DNA from: an uncultured Candidatus Bathyarchaeia archaeon
GTDB lineage: Archaea > Thermoproteota > Bathyarchaeia > Bathyarchaeales > Bathyarchaeaceae
Assembly: GCA_964418675.1 (NCBI GenBank)
Contig: CAYQMM010000004.1
Span: 88,572-152,571 of the forward strand
DNA length: 64,000 nt
Direction of reading: 5' to 3'
Positions 11,185 to 19,648 of the stretch are shown one piece after another. A model generated the notes under the pieces. It made no database searches and had not been told where the DNA came from. It saw only the letters and a program-made list of their open reading frames with translations. Position 1 is the stretch's first letter. Every line of letters begins with the position of its first letter. A program made the position numbers and the translations under genes.

Positions 11185-11571
11185 ATGAGCAACGGTGAAC
11201 AGGTCGAAAAGGAGGACCCTATAAAAATTCACAAAGAAGGAACAACCTTGGCTGACGTCGGGAAATTCGAGGAGGCAGCAGAGAAGTACCTGCTGGCGTC
11301 TGAACTGTATGAGAAGAACAAGAACTTTTTCGATGCCTCCTATGCTCTGTTTAAGGCGGCGGAATGTAATTTTCAGCTGAAGGATTATGGTACAGCTAAG
11401 GAACGCTTTCTCAAGGCAGCGGAGTTGGCGTTTAAGATGGGCTATGACCGCTTTGGAGTCAGCGCCCTAGAGTATGCCCTTGACAGCTACAAAGCCCTGG
11501 ACGAAGAAGACCAAACAGAGGAACTTAAAAAGAAGATAAAAGAAGTGAAAACCAAACTCCAAAGTTTCTAA
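11185..11571 (+). CDS. TPR / SNAP-like all-helical protein
   Basis: Repeated helix pairs: FEEAAEKYLLASELYEK, ALFKAAEC, AKERFLKAAELA. Confidence 0.6.
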   Translation: MSNGEQVEKEDPIKIHKEGTTLADVGKFEEAAEKYLLASELYEKNKNFFDASYALFKAAECNFQLKDYGTAKERFLKAAELAFKMGYDRFGVSALEYALDSYKALDEEDQTEELKKKIKEVKTKLQSF

Positions 11572-11630: not shown

Positions 11631-11686
11631 TTTTTCAGGAAAAAGTCTGTTTTCAACAATACGCTGTTATTAGGCTCCTAATATGA
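11631..11686 (+). repeat. Dispersed intergenic repeat, copy B (reference copy)
   Basis: tttttcaggaaaaagtctgttttcaacaatacgctgttattaggctcctaatatga; contains the palindrome TATTAGG-CT-CCTAATA. Confidence 0.92.
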
Positions 11687-11696
11687 TTGGGGTGGG

Positions 11697-12362
11697 TTAT
11701 CGCTGTTTTTTTCTTGCTTCTGTTATGAGGTCTGTGAGGGCTGCGAAGGCTTTGCTTACGTCTTCCATGGCTAGCACGATTATCGTTTCTGTGAAGCAGC
11801 TCATGGTCTCCTCAATGTTGATGTGCCTCCGTGAAACAGCATTATAGAAAGCCTGCACACACCCCGGAGTATCAATTATCTCATCTGGACTGCGGATGAT
11901 AACAGTTGCCAGATTCTGTTTCTTATCCACCACAGCCTTTTCAGCGAAGACCGAGCAGATTTTGCTGAAGGAATTCAAGTCAGAAATCAAGGTAACCACG
12001 GATATTCCTTCAATGACCTGAAGAAATTCCCCTGAGAACCGCGCTACGGTTCTTCTTATTTTTTCCAAATTCTCTTTCGATTTTTCAACTGAAACCTTAG
12101 CCATGTCTGTTCTGATGTTCAAGACGCTTCCCGCCACAACCCTTGTTATTTTTCCCTGTAAGATGGTGTAGTTGGCTTTGGCTCGCTTAACCGAAGTTAT
12201 CACGCTTTCAAGCTTAACGTCCTGATCTACTGCTTCCTTAACCTTAGGCATCAGCATTCTGGCTATGGCGCTGTAGTTGCCGTATTCTCTCTGCAGAGCG
12301 TCCTGCAGGGAGAGGTCTTCGTCTATGAGTTTTTGTACGGTTTTTGAGATTGAATTGACCAT
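11697..12362 (-). CDS. ACT-domain amino-acid-metabolism regulator (COG2150-like)
   Basis: N-terminal helical domain NYSAIAR and C-terminal ACT with TPG...AVSRRHINIEETMSCFTE. Confidence 0.7.
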   Translation of the reverse strand: MVNSISKTVQKLIDEDLSLQDALQREYGNYSAIARMLMPKVKEAVDQDVKLESVITSVKRAKANYTILQGKITRVVAGSVLNIRTDMAKVSVEKSKENLEKIRRTVARFSGEFLQVIEGISVVTLISDLNSFSKICSVFAEKAVVDKKQNLATVIIRSPDEIIDTPGCVQAFYNAVSRRHINIEETMSCFTETIIVLAMEDVSKAFAALTDLITEARKKQR

Positions 12363-12404
12363 TTTTGGTCACTTTTGCCCATTTTCTTATAATATTGACC
12401 AAAA
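12356..12404. promoter_or_regulatory. Candidate operator: TGACCA-N4-TGGTCA plus a third TGACCA half-site
   Basis: Palindrome at 12356-12371 overlaps the ACT gene start codon; TGACCAAAA at 12396-12404 lies just upstream of a TATATAAG box facing argG. Confidence 0.5.
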
Positions 12405-12451
12405 TCTATATAAGCATTTCCCGAATTATCAACGTGAAACTGGGAAACACG

Positions 12452-13663
12452 ATGAAGGACACCATCATACTAGCCTACTCCGGCGGACTGGACACATCCG
12501 TCCTAATAAAATGGCTACAAGAAAAATACAAAGTAGACCTGATAACGGTCACCATGGAACTGGGGCAGCACAGCGACCTAAAAGAAGTCAAAGAAAAAGC
12601 CCACAACCTAGGCGTCAAAAAACACTACTCCATAGACGCCACAGAAGAATTCACAACCCAACACGTCTTTCCAGCCATAAAAGCAAACGCCCTCTACGAA
12701 GGAAAATACCCCATAAGCACAGCCCTAGGACGCCCCCTAATCGCAACAAAAATGGTTGCGATAGCAGAGAAGGAGGGAGCAGTAGCAGTCGCCCACGGCT
12801 GCACGGGAAAAGGCAACGATCAAGTCAGATTCGACATAACCATCAAGTCCCTTGCTCCCAAACTCAAGGTGATGGCTCCAGTTAGAGAGTGGGGACTATC
12901 CAGAGAAGAAGAAATAAAATACGCCAAAGAGAAAGGCATCCCAATTCCCCACTTATCCGACCCCTACAGCATAGACCAGAACCTCTGGGGACGCTCCATA
13001 GAGTGCGGATGCCTAGAAAACCCAGAACAGGAACCGCCGGAAGAGATTTACGAGTGGACAGTCTCTCCCGAAAAGGCACCAGACAAACCAGAATACATCA
13101 CCATCAAATTTAAAGACGGCGTCCCATGCGCCCTGAACGGCAAGAACCTCAATCCAGTAACCCTAATAGAAAAAGTGAACAAAATCGCCGGTAAACACGG
13201 CGTTGGACGCATCGACCACATGGAGGATAGGCTGGTAGGCATCAAATCGCGGGAAATCTACGAATGCCCCGCCGCCCTCGTAATACTAGAAGCCCACAAG
13301 GATTTGGAGAAACTGGTTCTGACCCGCCATGAGGTCATGTTTAAAAGGCAGATTGATGACCAGTGGACTTTCCTAGTTTACACTGGCTTGTGGATAGACC
13401 CCCTACGGGAGGCTCTTGAAGCCTTCATAGACAAGACTCAGGAACGCGTCTGCGGCGAAGTGAAAATGAAGCTGTACAAAGGAGGCTTCGGGGTTGTGGG
13501 ACGCTCCTCACCCATGTCCCTCTACGACAAGAATCTGGCAACCTATGACGTCAAAACCTCTTTTGACCAGTCTCATGCTGAAGGCTTCATAGAACTGTGG
13601 GGACTACCCACCAAAGTAGCTAACATACTGAAAGAGAAGGTGAAAAAGGAAGGAAAATGTTAA
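12452..13663 (+). CDS. argG: Argininosuccinate synthase
   Basis: LAYSGGLDTS, HGCTGKGNDQVRF, SIDQNLWGRSIE; start corrected to MKDTII. Confidence 0.97.
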   Translation: MKDTIILAYSGGLDTSVLIKWLQEKYKVDLITVTMELGQHSDLKEVKEKAHNLGVKKHYSIDATEEFTTQHVFPAIKANALYEGKYPISTALGRPLIATKMVAIAEKEGAVAVAHGCTGKGNDQVRFDITIKSLAPKLKVMAPVREWGLSREEEIKYAKEKGIPIPHLSDPYSIDQNLWGRSIECGCLENPEQEPPEEIYEWTVSPEKAPDKPEYITIKFKDGVPCALNGKNLNPVTLIEKVNKIAGKHGVGRIDHMEDRLVGIKSREIYECPAALVILEAHKDLEKLVLTRHEVMFKRQIDDQWTFLVYTGLWIDPLREALEAFIDKTQERVCGEVKMKLYKGGFGVVGRSSPMSLYDKNLATYDVKTSFDQSHAEGFIELWGLPTKVANILKEKVKKEGKC

Positions 13664-13709: not shown

Positions 13710-15200
13710 ATGTCGAAGTTGTTGCGGGGAGGAAGAATAGGCTCTGTTCGAAAAGATGTGGTTGAGTTTACCTCATCCATCAAAAGCGACAAGAAGCTAC
13801 TGGAAGCAGTGATCAAGATCAACGAAGCCCATGTAGCCATGCTTATGGAGCAGAAAATCCTCGATTGGCAAAAAGGCGCCAAGCTCCTAAAGGCATTGAC
13901 AGAAATTGATCCTAAAATGAGGCTGAAGCCCTCTCTTGAGGATGTTCACCTAGCCGTCGAAGAGGAGGTTAACAAGAAAGTTGGCTTGGAGACCGGCGGA
14001 AATCTGCATATCGCCAAAAGCAGGAATGACCAAGTGGCAACAGCCATCAGGATGGAGCTTCGAGAAAATCTCCTGGAACTGATGAATTTTGTTGTCAAGC
14101 TGCAGGAGGCTTTAATCGGCTTGGCTGAGAAGCATGTCAAAACGTTGGTGCCCGGCTATACGCATCTGCATCCAGCCCAGCCCATCACCTTCGCCCACTA
14201 CCTCCTAGCCCATGTGGACATGCTGGAGAGGGACCTGAAGAGGCTGGAGGAGACGTATCCCCGAGTCAACCTGTGTCCCATGGGTGCGGGGGCTATAGCA
14301 ACCACAAGCTTCCCCATAAACCGGAACAGAACCGCTGAGCTGCTAGGTTTCGGTGAGGTCCTAGAGAACTCCATCGACGCTGTGGGCAGCCGCGACTTCA
14401 TCCTAGAAACCTTGGCTAACCTCACATTAGTTGCCGTTGACCTGAGCCGACTGGCAGAAGACCTGATAGTCTGGAGTTCCCCAGACTTTGGAATAATCGA
14501 GCTTCCCGAAAGTTTCGCGTTTACAAGCAGCATAATGCCCCAGAAAAAGAATCCCGACCTCCTAGAGGTTATCAGGGCGAGGATGAGCCATGTCCTAGGC
14601 AACTTTTTAGCCTCCGCAACCACCATGAAGGCGCTGCCCTCAGGCTACAACTTGGACTTTCAGGAGATTACCCCCAAGCTTTGGGAATCCCTTGAAACAG
14701 TTGACGGCTCATTGGATATGCTCTCTGAGCTAGTTAAGAACCTGAAAGTATCCAAAGACGTTTTCAGCAAGCCAGTTCTCAAATTCTCAACCACAACAGA
14801 ACTAGCCAACGTGCTAGCCAAGAAGTATGGCGTTCCCTTCAGGACTGCACACAAAATAGTTGGAACCCTCGTCAAAACCTTGCTAGACAAGAAACTGAGC
14901 CTTTCCGACGTCAAACCTTCAATGCTCCAGAAGGCTGCCAAAGATTCAGCGGGGCTAGCCTTGAAGGTTAAGGATGCGGATGTCCAAGCGTCCATTGACC
15001 CTGTGAAATTCGTTGAGAGCCACAAAGCTAAGGGTGGTCCGTCCGCGGCAGAAGTCAAGAGGATGCTTAAAAACCGAAAACAGTTGACGGCTCAATCAAA
15101 GGCGAATTTGAAAGAGAAAAAGGGCAAGTTGGATGCGGCTGACGGTCAGCTAAAGGCGGTAGTTAAAGGTTATTTGGATAAGGTAAACTTCAAAAGTTAG
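13710..15200 (+). CDS. argH: Argininosuccinate lyase
   Basis: SRNDQVAT, PGYTHL, SSIMPQKKNPD. Confidence 0.96.
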   Translation: MSKLLRGGRIGSVRKDVVEFTSSIKSDKKLLEAVIKINEAHVAMLMEQKILDWQKGAKLLKALTEIDPKMRLKPSLEDVHLAVEEEVNKKVGLETGGNLHIAKSRNDQVATAIRMELRENLLELMNFVVKLQEALIGLAEKHVKTLVPGYTHLHPAQPITFAHYLLAHVDMLERDLKRLEETYPRVNLCPMGAGAIATTSFPINRNRTAELLGFGEVLENSIDAVGSRDFILETLANLTLVAVDLSRLAEDLIVWSSPDFGIIELPESFAFTSSIMPQKKNPDLLEVIRARMSHVLGNFLASATTMKALPSGYNLDFQEITPKLWESLETVDGSLDMLSELVKNLKVSKDVFSKPVLKFSTTTELANVLAKKYGVPFRTAHKIVGTLVKTLLDKKLSLSDVKPSMLQKAAKDSAGLALKVKDADVQASIDPVKFVESHKAKGGPSAAEVKRMLKNRKQLTAQSKANLKEKKGKLDAADGQLKAVVKGYLDKVNFKS

Positions 15201-15224: not shown

Positions 15225-16367
15225 GTGAAAGCAAAAGATAAGCCCTCGAAAACTGGAAAAGCCGTTCTCGTTTTGGAAGATGGCTCCACTTTTCTCGGCT
15301 ATGGCTTCGGCGCAGCAAAGAAGGTTGCAGGCGAAATCGTCTTCTCCACCTCTATGGTTGGATACCCCGAATCGCTGACAGATCCCTCCTACAAGGGACA
15401 AATCCTAACGTTCACTTACCCGCTTGTTGGCAACTATGGGGTGCCACCCTACACCCTAGAGAAGGGCGTCCTCAAATACTTCGAATCTGAAGACATCAAG
15501 GTAACAGGCTTCGCCATCCACGAATTGTGCAGGAATCCTTACCATTGGGCATCCACCCGAACATTAGATGAGTGGCTCAAAAGCGAAGATGTTCCCGGGA
15601 TATATGGCATTGACACCCGAAAGCTCACTAAGAAGCTCAGAGTCAAGGGCGTCATGCTGGGAATCTTAAAAGTGTGCGATGAAGGAGAGGAACCTGACCT
15701 CGATAAGCTCCTGAAAGAAGTGAAGACGGTTCAGGACCCCAACTTCACAGACCTCGTAAAGAAGGTAACAGTGAAAGAACCAGTTCGCTACCAGTCCGGA
15801 GGAGACAGGTTAGCGGTTCTGATTGACTGCGGCGTCAAATACGGTATTCTCCGCAACCTCCTGAAACGGGGCTTCGACGTGATACGGGTGCCCTACGACT
15901 TTTCGGCAGAGGAGATTCTGGAATACAAGCCCGACGGCGTCATAATAAGCAACGGTCCCGGAGACCCGAAACAATGCACCAGAACAATTGAATCTGTCCG
16001 AATGTTAGTTGCGGAAGACACTCCAATAATGGGCATATGCCTTGGAACACAGATTCTAGCCTTGGCATTAGACGGCGACACCTACAAACTGAAGTATGGT
16101 CACAGGTCCCAGAATCAGCCCGCCCTTGACTTGGAAACGAAACGGTGCTACATCACCACCCAGAACCACGGCTACACCGCAGAAAGGAACTCGCTGAAAG
16201 ACACTGGGCTGGAGGTCTGGTTCATGAACGCCAACGACAAGACAGTTGAAGGCGTAAAACACAAGAGCAAACCCGCCTTCGCCCTTCAATGGCATCCTGA
16301 AGCCTCGCCTGGACCCTACGACACGGAGTTTCTCTTCGACAGATTCCGTAAACTTGCGGGGGGCTAA
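15225..16367 (+). CDS. carA: Carbamoyl-phosphate synthase small chain
   Basis: GYPESLTDPSY, SNGPGDP, GICLG, QWHPEASPGP. Confidence 0.97.
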   Translation: MKAKDKPSKTGKAVLVLEDGSTFLGYGFGAAKKVAGEIVFSTSMVGYPESLTDPSYKGQILTFTYPLVGNYGVPPYTLEKGVLKYFESEDIKVTGFAIHELCRNPYHWASTRTLDEWLKSEDVPGIYGIDTRKLTKKLRVKGVMLGILKVCDEGEEPDLDKLLKEVKTVQDPNFTDLVKKVTVKEPVRYQSGGDRLAVLIDCGVKYGILRNLLKRGFDVIRVPYDFSAEEILEYKPDGVIISNGPGDPKQCTRTIESVRMLVAEDTPIMGICLGTQILALALDGDTYKLKYGHRSQNQPALDLETKRCYITTQNHGYTAERNSLKDTGLEVWFMNANDKTVEGVKHKSKPAFALQWHPEASPGPYDTEFLFDRFRKLAGG

Positions 16368-16372
16368 AGAAG

Positions 16373-19300
16373 GTGCCTAGGTTCGAATGGATAAAGAAGG
16401 TTATGGTTCTCGGCAGTGGCGCCATAAAAATTGGAGAAGCCGCAGAATTTGATTATTCTGGAAGTCAGTGCTTGAAGGCTCTTCGGGAAGAAGGAATAGA
16501 AACTGTTCTGGTTAACCCTAACATAGCCACGATTCAAACCGACCCCCGCCTAGCAGGAAAAGTTTACCTGTTGCCTGTAACGCCCGAGTTCGTTGAGGAG
16601 GTCATCGCAAAAGAACTCCCAGATGCAATTATGCTGAGCTTTGGGGGACAGACCGCCCTAAATTGCGGTGTCCAACTTGCCAAGAAGGGCATTCTCAAGA
16701 AATATGGTGTTAAGGTTTTGGGAACTCCTGTCCAGACCATAGAGGACACTGAAGACAGGGAATTGTTTAGGCAGGCTATGATCAAGGCTGATTGTTCGAT
16801 TGCCAAGAGCAAATCCGCCAGCTCTCTCGAAGAGGCAGTCAAAGTGGGCAGGGAAATCGGTTATCCTGTTATCATCCGTGTGGCTTATACATTGGGCGGT
16901 AAAGGCTCAGGCGTAGCCCGCAACGAAGCAGAACTGAAGGATATTGTCTGCCGCGCTTTGGGTATGAGCATGATTTCTCAGGTGCTCATTGAGGAGTATT
17001 TGGGTCACTGGAAAGAGATCGAGTATGAGGTTATGCGGGATTACGATGACAACTGCATAATAGTCTGTAACATGGAAAACTTTGATCCCATGGGCGTTCA
17101 CACGGGCGACTCCATAGTAGTTGCGCCATCTCAGACTCTCTCCAACCGGGAATATCACCTTCTTCGTTCCGCGTCGATAAAGGCGATACGAAGTCTAGGC
17201 GTAATCGGTGAATGCAACATCCAGTGGGCGCTGCATAAGGAATCAGAGGAGATTCGCGTCATAGAAGTTAATGCTCGGCTGTCACGAAGCTCAGCTTTGG
17301 CAAGCAAAGCAACAGGCTACCCCATTGCGTACATCGCAGCTAAACTGTGTATCGGTTATACGCTGCCGGAGTTGCTGAACAAGGTAACTGGTGTAACAAC
17401 AGCTTGCTTTGAGCCTGCTCTCGACTACCTTGTAGTTAAATATCCGCGCTGGGACTTGCAGAAGTTCAGGAACGTGGACAGGCATATTGGTCCTCAGATG
17501 AAGTCTGTTGGAGAAGTTATGGGCATAGGAAGATGCTTCGAGGAAGCCTTACAGAAAGCTATCCGCATGCTAGACATTGGAAAGGTTGGAATTGTCTGTA
17601 ACCTTGGCGAAGACGAAACCGAACAAATAGAAACAATAAAGGATGTTTTAGCTTACCCCACAGACCAGAGGCTCTTCAAAATAGTTAAGGCATTGAAAAA
17701 GGGCATTTCCGTCGAGGAAATCTACAAACTGAGTGGCGTTGACCCTTTCTTTCTCCACAAAATCAAAAACGCCATCAACATGGAACAGAAATTACGCTCC
17801 ATAGACCCGAAAGACAGCGACTTTCTGGAGACCATCCGGGAAGCGAAGCGCCTCGGATTTTCAGACAAGCAAATCGCCATCTGCCGTGACACAGACGAAT
17901 TTGCCATACGCAAGCTGCGGAAAGAGGCAAAGATAGTTCCTGTGGTTAAGCAGATAGACACTCTAGCCGCTGAATGGCCAGCAAAAACGAATTATCTTTA
18001 CTTGACTTATGGTGGAGACGAGGACGACACAGAGTTTTCTTCAGTTAACAGGAAGGTTATGGTTCTCGGGGCTGGTGTCTTCAGGATAGGGTCCAGCGTG
18101 GAGTTTGACTGGTGCGGGGTTAACACTATCTGGGCTCTCAAAAAGAACGGCATCGAAGAGGCTATAATGGTCAACTACAATCCCGAAACGGTCTCTACAG
18201 ACTATGACATGTCAGACAAACTCTACTTCGAAGAACTGACGCTGGAGAGGATTCTGGACATATACGACAAGGAGAACCCGCTCGGAGTCATAGCGAGCGT
18301 AGGCGGACAGATTCCAAACAACCTAGCCCTGAAACTATCGAACGCTGGAGTGAAACTGCTGGGCACGACAGGGGAGAGCATAGACAGGGCGGAAGACAGA
18401 TCGAAGTTCAGCGCTCTTCTGGACAAGCTTGGGATTCCTCAGCCTGAATGGAGCGACCTATCAACAAAACGGGACCTCAAAGAGTTTGCTTCGAAAATCG
18501 GTTATCCCGTCCTTATTCGTCCTAGTTATGTCTTGTCAGGCTCTGCAATGAGGGTTGCCTACACCCAAAGCGAGTTGGACAGCTACCTCAAGCTGGCTGC
18601 CAAAGTTTCACGGGAACATCCCGCTGTAATCTCGAAGTTTATAGAGAATGCCAAGGAAGTTGAGGTTGACGGCGTCTATGACGGCGAGGACAACATCATA
18701 GGAGCCATCATCGAGCATGTTGAGAACGCGGGAGTTCACAGCGGCGACGCCACCATGGGCATCCCAACTCTGACCTTGAATAGCGACGCCTTGAGAACAG
18801 TTCAAGACTACACCCATAAAATTGTGAGAGCACTTGAAATCAGGGGACCCTACAACATTCAGTATCTCGTAAAAAACGGCTTCACATACGTTATCGAATG
18901 CAATCTTCGTGCTTCTAGGTCCATGCCTTACGTCAGCAAAACCCGTGGAGTCAACATGATAGAACTTGCTACTCTAGCGATGCTGGGCAAAAAGTTCAAG
19001 GATTCTGGATTCACTGATTTGCCAGAAATCACCCACTTTGGAGTGAAGGTTCCCCAATTCAGTTTCATGCGTTTAAGCGGAGCCGATCCAGTATTAGGAG
19101 TTGAAATGCTGAGCACGGGAGAAGTAGCATGTCTAGGAGAGAACTTCACCGATGCCCTATCAAAGGCATTGCAGTCAGCTGACTTCAAGATTCCACCCGA
19201 AGGCGGCTCAGTGCTCATAACTGTCGGAGGAAAAGAGCTGAAGGAGAAGGTTGTTCCTATCGGAAGGGCGCTGAGGAACATGGGTTTCAAAATCTACGCC

Positions 19301-19648
19301 ACCAAACATACTGCTGAAGTTCTGCAGGGTGCGGGAGTGAACAACATTTCAGTTCTGCACAAGGTCAGGGAGGTGGGGCAGAAACCCAACATAGTTGACT
19401 ATCTAAAAGGAGGAAAAATCGATATGGTAGTCAACATTCCTATGCCTAACCATTCAGGAACAATCTCTGAAGTCCTGAAAGACGAATACACCATCCGCAG
19501 GTTAGCAATCGAATTCAACGTTCCGGTGGTAACGAATCTTCAGTTGGCGTCAGCCCTCACCAAAATGTTGGAGCAGCGGGAAGGCAACAAATTTGACATT
19601 CGCTCCCTGAATGAGTACATGGACAGTTTGCCGAGGAAGTTCTGGTAG
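16373..19648 (+). CDS. carB: Carbamoyl-phosphate synthase large chain
   Basis: EFDYSGSQCLKAL, two ATP-grasp modules, GVHTGDS/GVHSGD, MGS-like C-terminus. Confidence 0.98.
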   Translation: MPRFEWIKKVMVLGSGAIKIGEAAEFDYSGSQCLKALREEGIETVLVNPNIATIQTDPRLAGKVYLLPVTPEFVEEVIAKELPDAIMLSFGGQTALNCGVQLAKKGILKKYGVKVLGTPVQTIEDTEDRELFRQAMIKADCSIAKSKSASSLEEAVKVGREIGYPVIIRVAYTLGGKGSGVARNEAELKDIVCRALGMSMISQVLIEEYLGHWKEIEYEVMRDYDDNCIIVCNMENFDPMGVHTGDSIVVAPSQTLSNREYHLLRSASIKAIRSLGVIGECNIQWALHKESEEIRVIEVNARLSRSSALASKATGYPIAYIAAKLCIGYTLPELLNKVTGVTTACFEPALDYLVVKYPRWDLQKFRNVDRHIGPQMKSVGEVMGIGRCFEEALQKAIRMLDIGKVGIVCNLGEDETEQIETIKDVLAYPTDQRLFKIVKALKKGISVEEIYKLSGVDPFFLHKIKNAINMEQKLRSIDPKDSDFLETIREAKRLGFSDKQIAICRDTDEFAIRKLRKEAKIVPVVKQIDTLAAEWPAKTNYLYLTYGGDEDDTEFSSVNRKVMVLGAGVFRIGSSVEFDWCGVNTIWALKKNGIEEAIMVNYNPETVSTDYDMSDKLYFEELTLERILDIYDKENPLGVIASVGGQIPNNLALKLSNAGVKLLGTTGESIDRAEDRSKFSALLDKLGIPQPEWSDLSTKRDLKEFASKIGYPVLIRPSYVLSGSAMRVAYTQSELDSYLKLAAKVSREHPAVISKFIENAKEVEVDGVYDGEDNIIGAIIEHVENAGVHSGDATMGIPTLTLNSDALRTVQDYTHKIVRALEIRGPYNIQYLVKNGFTYVIECNLRASRSMPYVSKTRGVNMIELATLAMLGKKFKDSGFTDLPEITHFGVKVPQFSFMRLSGADPVLGVEMLSTGEVACLGENFTDALSKALQSADFKIPPEGGSVLITVGGKELKEKVVPIGRALRNMGFKIYATKHTAEVLQGAGVNNISVLHKVREVGQKPNIVDYLKGGKIDMVVNIPMPNHSGTISEVLKDEYTIRRLAIEFNVPVVTNLQLASALTKMLEQREGNKFDIRSLNEYMDSLPRKFW

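Follow-up and report, generated by a model that had tools for sequence, protein, structure and literature searches.

A probable phased operator between a tandem-ACT regulator gene and argG-argH-carA-carB in Bathyarchaeia, and its co-occurrence with one protein clade

The window analysed was a 64,000-nucleotide stretch of a Candidatus Bathyarchaeum-like genome (assembly of 2.04 Mb, 93% complete). A gene for a putative ACT-domain regulator was divergent from argG-argH-carA-carB, with 89 bp up to the argG ATG at 12452. The open reading frame and the argG coordinates thus bear out the head-to-head arrangement given in a preliminary description of this DNA. The nearest named homologues of the regulator were those of Ca. 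Bathyarchaeum (86–90% identity). The assignments of argG, argH and carA passed their NCBIfam cut-offs, and carB was called from its position, length and sequence. The genes are:

11697–12362, minus strand: regulator gene (221 aa; DUF7523/UCP014439-related family)
12452–13663, plus strand: argG, argininosuccinate synthase (NF001770, above cut-off)
13710–15200, plus strand: argH, argininosuccinate lyase (TIGR00838, above cut-off)
15225–16367, plus strand: carA, carbamoyl-phosphate synthase small subunit (TIGR01368, above cut-off)
16373–19648, plus strand: carB, carbamoyl-phosphate synthase large subunit (1091 aa)

The gene downstream of the regulator varied among relatives. Here, a 128-aa TPR/SNAP-like protein (window 11185–11571, plus strand) converged on the regulator; it was absent at that position in the other 29 loci. 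An intergenic repeat of about 56 bp immediately followed the regulator stop codon (window 11631–11686) and was also found upstream of argF in loci L031 and L081–L083.

The spacer contained the following elements, unstranded unless a strand is given:

12356–12371: core 16-bp palindrome TGACCA-TTTT-TGGTCA, made of boxes 5 and 4, spanning the regulator ATG and ribosome-binding site
12369–12372, minus strand: putative GTGA Shine-Dalgarno sequence of the regulator, 10 nt before the ATG
12376–12381: box 3, a weaker hexamer in 10-bp phase (TGGGCA on the regulator strand)
12386–12391: box 2 position, degenerate in this genus and box-like in several other families
12396–12401: box 1, near-invariant (TGGTCA on the regulator strand), between the TATA box and the predicted start site of the regulator
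12406–12415: single conserved TATA element with purine-rich, BRE-like flanks on either side

Read on the regulator strand from the TATA box, the spacer held box 1 (TGGTCA), the degenerate position, box 3 (TGGGCA), box 4 (TGACCA) and box 5 (TGGTCA), that is, five hexamer positions in a 10-bp-phased array beside one TATA box. Since purine-rich flanks were present on both sides, the TATA element probably serves both directions. Box 1 extended approximately 2 bp into the predicted argG BRE from its upstream side. As the preliminary description had noted, the palindrome overlay the regulator's own start codon (12360–12362), and a third half-site (12396–12404) lay 24 nt from its inverse copy (12363–12371) and 2 nt before the argG TATA box (12407–12414). 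The weaker box at 12376–12381 and the 10-bp phasing had been missed, as had the overlap of one palindrome arm with the ribosome-binding site. The exact palindrome occurred once in the window and once in the genome, and the run of three phased TGNNCA hexamers was the only one in the genome.

For footprinting, 133 non-identical homologue loci were gathered across the phylum and scored with a fixed DNA rule, which 1.8% of shuffled upstream regions also passed. All 61 loci of one protein clade, covering 16 families, had the motif, against none of the 72 other homologue loci, so the footprinting of TGACCA-N4-TGGTCA at orthologous loci that had been proposed earlier gave a clear positive result. In a quick protein tree of 95 rows (38 near-duplicate or doubtful rows were left out), a single branch separated the motif-bearing rows from all others (37/37; SH-aLRT 98; one change; 0/500 shuffles). 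Since the motif and the clade have one origin, this co-segregation counts as a single evolutionary event. The divergent partner in the motif clade was argG at 51 loci, carA at eight and a polar amino-acid ABC importer at two. The sister clade included eight argG-divergent loci without the motif. Because the motif was kept across the change of partner and was missing at these eight argG-facing loci, it follows the regulator rather than argG. It was conserved down to proteins of approximately 50% identity and beyond. Several sister-clade loci carried GTTAC-N4-GTAAC instead, and the sister clade's helix 51–62 differed; other clades likewise combined different recognition-helix sequences with different 16-bp palindromes before their own genes. 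Its persistence with this protein lineage in 16 archaeal families makes the motif a probable target of an arginine-responsive gene switch that is unrelated to its bacterial counterpart.

The palindrome is in part trivially explained, since box 4 overlaps the GTGA ribosome-binding site and box 5 consists of the ATG-Val codons; the ribosome-binding site and ATG account for half of it. The 10-nt spacing between the Shine-Dalgarno sequence and the ATG was the commonest in the genome. A near-copy of the palindrome with one mismatch, of the same Shine-Dalgarno-plus-ATG origin, was found at an unrelated gene in two relatives. These observations would suit a chance origin, in which the palindrome is a by-product of the Shine-Dalgarno sequence, an A-rich spacer and ATG-Val that was kept because the relatives are close. 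The remaining evidence largely refutes this explanation, which we regard as very improbable. The box columns were 90–100% conserved, compared with a mean majority of 0.61–0.63 at four-fold degenerate sites of the flanking genes (26 close loci), and conservation extended well beyond close relatives, as described above. At 44 loci the regulator's start codon was followed by GTC, and at none by a different Val codon; the baseline for GTC was 20% of Val codons genome-wide and 3 of 63 after a first ATG. Box 1 was near-invariant and has no translational role.

The palindrome might alternatively act as an RNA hairpin that masks the ribosome-binding site and start codon of the regulator, with box 1 being a core-promoter element. 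It did fold on the predicted mRNA (−9.5 kcal/mol, z −3.5), and automated pairing gave perfect or wobble-compatible stems at 39 of 61 loci. At the other 22 loci, the automated pair picks broke the stem, a few of them being mis-picked pairs; some loci had direct repeats instead, and compensatory changes were absent. Box 1 has the same hexamer, yet it lies upstream of both predicted start sites and hence is not transcribed. Neither is the hexamer a general promoter element, because it adjoined only 3–4 of 1487 non-coding TATA-like sites. Finally, the boxes were spaced in helical phase: the distance from box 1 to box 4 was 30 or 31 bp in 51 of 61 loci, as expected for dimers on one helix face. We therefore consider the hairpin improbable and favour binding of the boxes by a protein.

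The AlphaFold2 model of the regulator (pLDDT 96) consisted of a four-helix head (residues 1–62), containing HTH-like helices 30–45 and 51–62, and a tandem ACT module (residues ~74–217). In the model, the protein thus has two ACT folds, compared with the single ACT domain noted before. The ACT module resembled the regulatory domains of aspartokinases (Z 15.8, rmsd 2.5, 140 aligned residues) and CASTOR1/2 (Z 7.7–8.3), and a part of it weakly resembled the C-terminal domain of ArgR (Z 6.6–6.9, ~70 residues). By eye, E192, a predicted pocket residue, matched CASTOR1 Asp304 in position. The two-helix unit of the head had near-invariant N29, A34 and R60. A fold search with the head gave no clear solved relative, the best hit being a BEN domain–DNA complex within background (Z 6.2), and sequence searches of the PDB returned ACT matches only. 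The homodimer model scored 0.57, compared with 0.00 for the best control, with at least 96% of contacts agreeing between runs and a pLDDT of at least 83. The mark for this score was reached by 20 of 30 solved dimers and 1 of 23 monomers, and resemblance to the ACT dimers of aspartokinases may account for the score. Helix 51–62 was absent from the named interface residues of the modelled dimer.

Among the aligned homologues, 80 of 122 matched DUF7523 (PF24367) and 104 of 122 matched ACT_7. The PF24367 profile did not match the query protein, which indicates a divergent subfamily. Full-length homology was found with DUF7523/UCP014439 ACT proteins (atlas 0.95 by features, TM 0.86), and full-length look-alikes (TM 0.83–0.91) occurred in archaea and Bacteroidota. 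In the literature searched, no paper named DUF7523 and no function was described for it. The likeness of the ACT module explains why databases label many homologues as aspartate kinase. That identity was rejected for the 221-aa query, which has no kinase domain and matched in the ACT part only, with 21 bits versus a cut-off of 379. ArgR/AhrC was also rejected: neither PF01316 nor PF02863 matched, and the predicted head is all-helical, with no wing strands. PF01316 had no match in the protein or in the genome, and a control profile matched in 9 of 14 genomes. The TrpY profile NF053754 (TrpY_fam) did not match the query and matched only 2 of 122 homologues (best E 9e-4). As for Lrp/AsnC, the hhalign probability against the LysM-like protein of this genome was 1.5%, and none of the 122 members had an AsnC Pfam match.

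The DNA binding by the head is a prediction, and stand-alone ACT proteins serve as enzyme subunits in Thermoproteota (GapMind 2026). The boxes could thus be read by another transcription factor, with the ACT protein being an allosteric partner of ArgG or CarAB, comparable to the aspartokinase beta or AHAS small subunit. This is unlikely in our judgement, given that the motif tracked the ACT-protein clade rather than the adjacent enzyme, changed with the sequence of helix 51–62 and was kept beside a transporter, and that the regulator gene is transcribed away from the operon.

The idea of an arginine regulon was not supported, as argF and the LysW-pathway arg/lys operon had no boxes and the genome had no second credible intergenic site. 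In a position weight matrix scan of the genome, the next best site scored 20.6 bits, versus 27.7 bits for the studied locus, and was intragenic. A scan for phased boxes found only the studied locus outside genes, and a scan for TATA-adjacent boxes gave no second credible site. No boxes were present upstream of argF in approximately 21 regulator-bearing genomes or upstream of pyrB in this genome, and upstream of lysW-argX a stray hexamer was seen in only 2 of 22 cases. Sites with one mismatch were no commoner in five relatives than those of a reversed-pattern control; of 14 inspected, nine were intragenic and none preceded arg genes. In this genus, the unit amounts to one divergon.

A TATA-plus-box look-alike before an ammonium transporter gene (C13:38913) was rejected, being unconserved in 16 relatives and belonging to another motif. 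Before this transporter (L200–L216; G000:C13:37489–38739, minus strand), most of the 16 relatives had three to five copies of a 14-bp palindrome, TGAAY-N4-RTTCA, around the TATA box; this palindrome was degenerate in G000 and is a candidate nitrogen-regulator operator. The lysW-argX-argC-argB-argD-argE-type operon (C4:54924–60568) adjoined a LysM-like Lrp gene (NF040947 at 167 bits versus a cut-off of 180) and had a different conserved palindrome. Upstream of lysW (L218–L241; G000:C4:54700–54925), TACG-RATTT-CGTA was conserved together with a second half-site before the TATA box, and it is likely the LysM operator. The LysX/ArgX-like ligase (G000:C4:55202–56395) had 397 aa, extended about 120 aa beyond the family model and fell below its cut-off. 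Besides argF (C2) and pyrB, the genome had two further transcarbamylase-family genes (G000:C1:210784–211800 and C1:273432–274415), both scoring below the argF cut-off. Intergenic 20-bp palindromes with CTTGAC...GTCAAG arms formed phased arrays at three loci (L189, L190 and G000:C15:13120–13190), two of them before surface-protein-like genes; they were similar to but distinct from the studied boxes.

We consider it likely that the protein acts, as a dimer, as a one-component transcription factor, and that it represses itself and sets the output of the divergent operon. The helical head of the dimer would read TGGTCA/TGACCA hexamers one DNA turn apart, and the ligand of the tandem ACT module would be an arginine-pathway amino acid, with L-arginine as the likeliest candidate. 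On the regulator side, the boxes ran from just after the TATA box across the predicted start site, the ribosome-binding site and the ATG, a geometry that fits a repressor. Autorepression is predicted because occupied boxes would separate the TATA box from the regulator's start codon. Since box 1 touches the BRE of argG-argH-carA-carB, the same complex could set operon output by arginine supply, either with an arginine-bound complex that blocks TFB, the mode slightly favoured, or with an arginine-free complex that helps TBP/TFB. We lean towards repression of argG; activation, which also fits because every box precedes the argG TATA box, is a plausible, less favoured reading. With either sign, the operon would be on at low arginine. 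The predicted reach of the regulator here is one operon, comprising carbamoyl phosphate formation and the last two steps of arginine synthesis. Of the earlier proposal of an arginine-sensing autoregulatory repressor with a readable operator, an autoregulated, amino-acid-sensing, non-ArgR protein with such an operator is supported, based on the footprinting and on the lack of an ArgR domain in the 93%-complete genome.

Arginine as the ligand was inferred from gene neighbourhoods. The two sister clades repeatedly adjoined argG, argH, carA, other arginine-pathway genes and Lys/Arg/Orn-like importers across the phylum; in the sister clade, the neighbours were arg or car genes at 16 of 37 loci and an importer at 9 of 37. 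End-product sensing is also the usual logic of such regulation. The carAB product supplies pyrimidine synthesis as well, and the same DNA-binding autoregulator might answer to another signal, such as citrulline, ornithine, lysine, aspartate, glutamine, several amino acids or, via carAB, a pyrimidine-related compound. We give this a smaller but real share of the probability. In its favour, the loci with carA as the partner do not face argG, and the importer's binding protein fell below all cut-offs. On the arginine side, the best profile for that protein was a Lys/Arg/Orn model, and its best solved matches were arginine-type binding proteins. No SBP_bac_3 gene was found in this genome. The lack of boxes upstream of pyrB speaks against a pyrimidine-related signal. 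The closest solved folds, the aspartokinase ACT modules, bind Lys or Thr (PMC5187391), and LysM of Sulfolobus answers to several amino acids, including arginine (PMC3597687). CASTOR1 demonstrates that an ACT fold can be arginine-specific (PMC5187391). We retain an arginine-pathway amino acid, with arginine as the first candidate.

TrpY combines an HTH with an ACT domain, and its TRP boxes are TGNNCA-type hexamers. In Methanothermobacter thermautotrophicus, the promoters of the TrpY gene and the biosynthetic operon overlap in the DNA between them and contain these boxes, and TrpY represses itself always and the operon when its ligand is present (PMC6737238). The studied locus shares the divergent layout and the boxes in a shared promoter, and the position of box 1 over the BRE fits TFB occlusion as by a TrpY-like co-repressor (PMC6737238). 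In contrast to TrpY, the protein belongs to an unrelated family, has a tandem ACT module with a four-helix head and adjoins arginine rather than tryptophan genes. We regard the motif at this locus as real and as a probably functional operator of a regulator that is TrpY-like but unrelated to TrpY.

With bacterial ArgR/AhrC, the protein shares a predicted role in arginine feedback on arg and car genes and the weak C-terminal fold likeness. The ARG boxes of ArgR are 18-bp AT-rich tandem boxes; the operator described here is not an ARG box, and no dispersed regulon was found. A pocket for amino acids in a tandem ACT module is a likeness to the aspartokinase regulatory domain and CASTOR1, with a helical head in place of the kinase domain of the former. 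LysM (Lrp/AsnC) of Sulfolobus senses amino acids and binds just upstream of the BRE/TATA, with its main site 11 bp upstream (PMC3597687). The boxes just upstream of the argG BRE/TATA resemble this activator siting (PMC3597687), whereas the ligand domain (ACT here, RAM in LysM) and the operator differ and there is no profile similarity. In the literature searched, no dedicated arginine regulator was found for these archaea.

The regulator family as a whole is not arginine-specific, since other clades adjoined Hsp20-Cdc48, Lrp-type ligand-domain or membrane-protein genes. Homologues in two families lay head-to-head with Hsp20-like and Cdc48 genes (L076–L079, L140–L144, L174–L179), with TGTCAT/ATGACA or TGTAAT/ATTACA palindromes; they are possible proteostasis regulators. 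One clade (L062–L075, L080), with GTAAC/GTTAC-type palindromes, faced a protein of 172–174 aa with two Lrp/AsnC ligand-binding domains and no HTH match, and a deep-branching clade (L147, L180, L184) faced a membrane protein that by eye was TauE/SafE-type exporter-like. Some sister-clade regulators (L051, L114, L153, L154, L164, L165, L168) were co-oriented with argG or argH, and no such boxes were seen there. A sister-clade version of ~200 aa with a shortened head (L181, L183) replaced the studied clade in many genomes of family f9, one copy facing argG.

This analysis newly describes the operator of the Bathyarchaeia-containing clade and its phasing, shows that the operator co-segregates with the protein clade, and gives a negative result for a wider regulon. 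No function has been assigned to the DUF7523-related family, whose members often carry the label aspartate kinase; the finding provides a specific protein, a 46-bp probe and a shortlist of ligands. For Bathyarchaeia, a division of labour is predicted in which a LysM-like regulator would act on the LysW-carrier steps common with lysine, and the studied protein would govern carbamoyl phosphate and the final, arginine-specific steps. More tentatively, at somewhat less than even confidence, the studied clade may be one of a widespread archaeal and Bacteroidota family of transcription factors with a novel helical head and tandem ACT domains. The two largest sampled clades would then be arginine regulators of many Thermoproteota, each with its own recognition helix and 16-bp operator, and others would have been recruited to Hsp20-Cdc48 and further genes. 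If true, helix sequence and operator in this family would be linked by a readable code, and the family would provide an arginine sensor that is independent of ArgR and has a CASTOR-like pocket.
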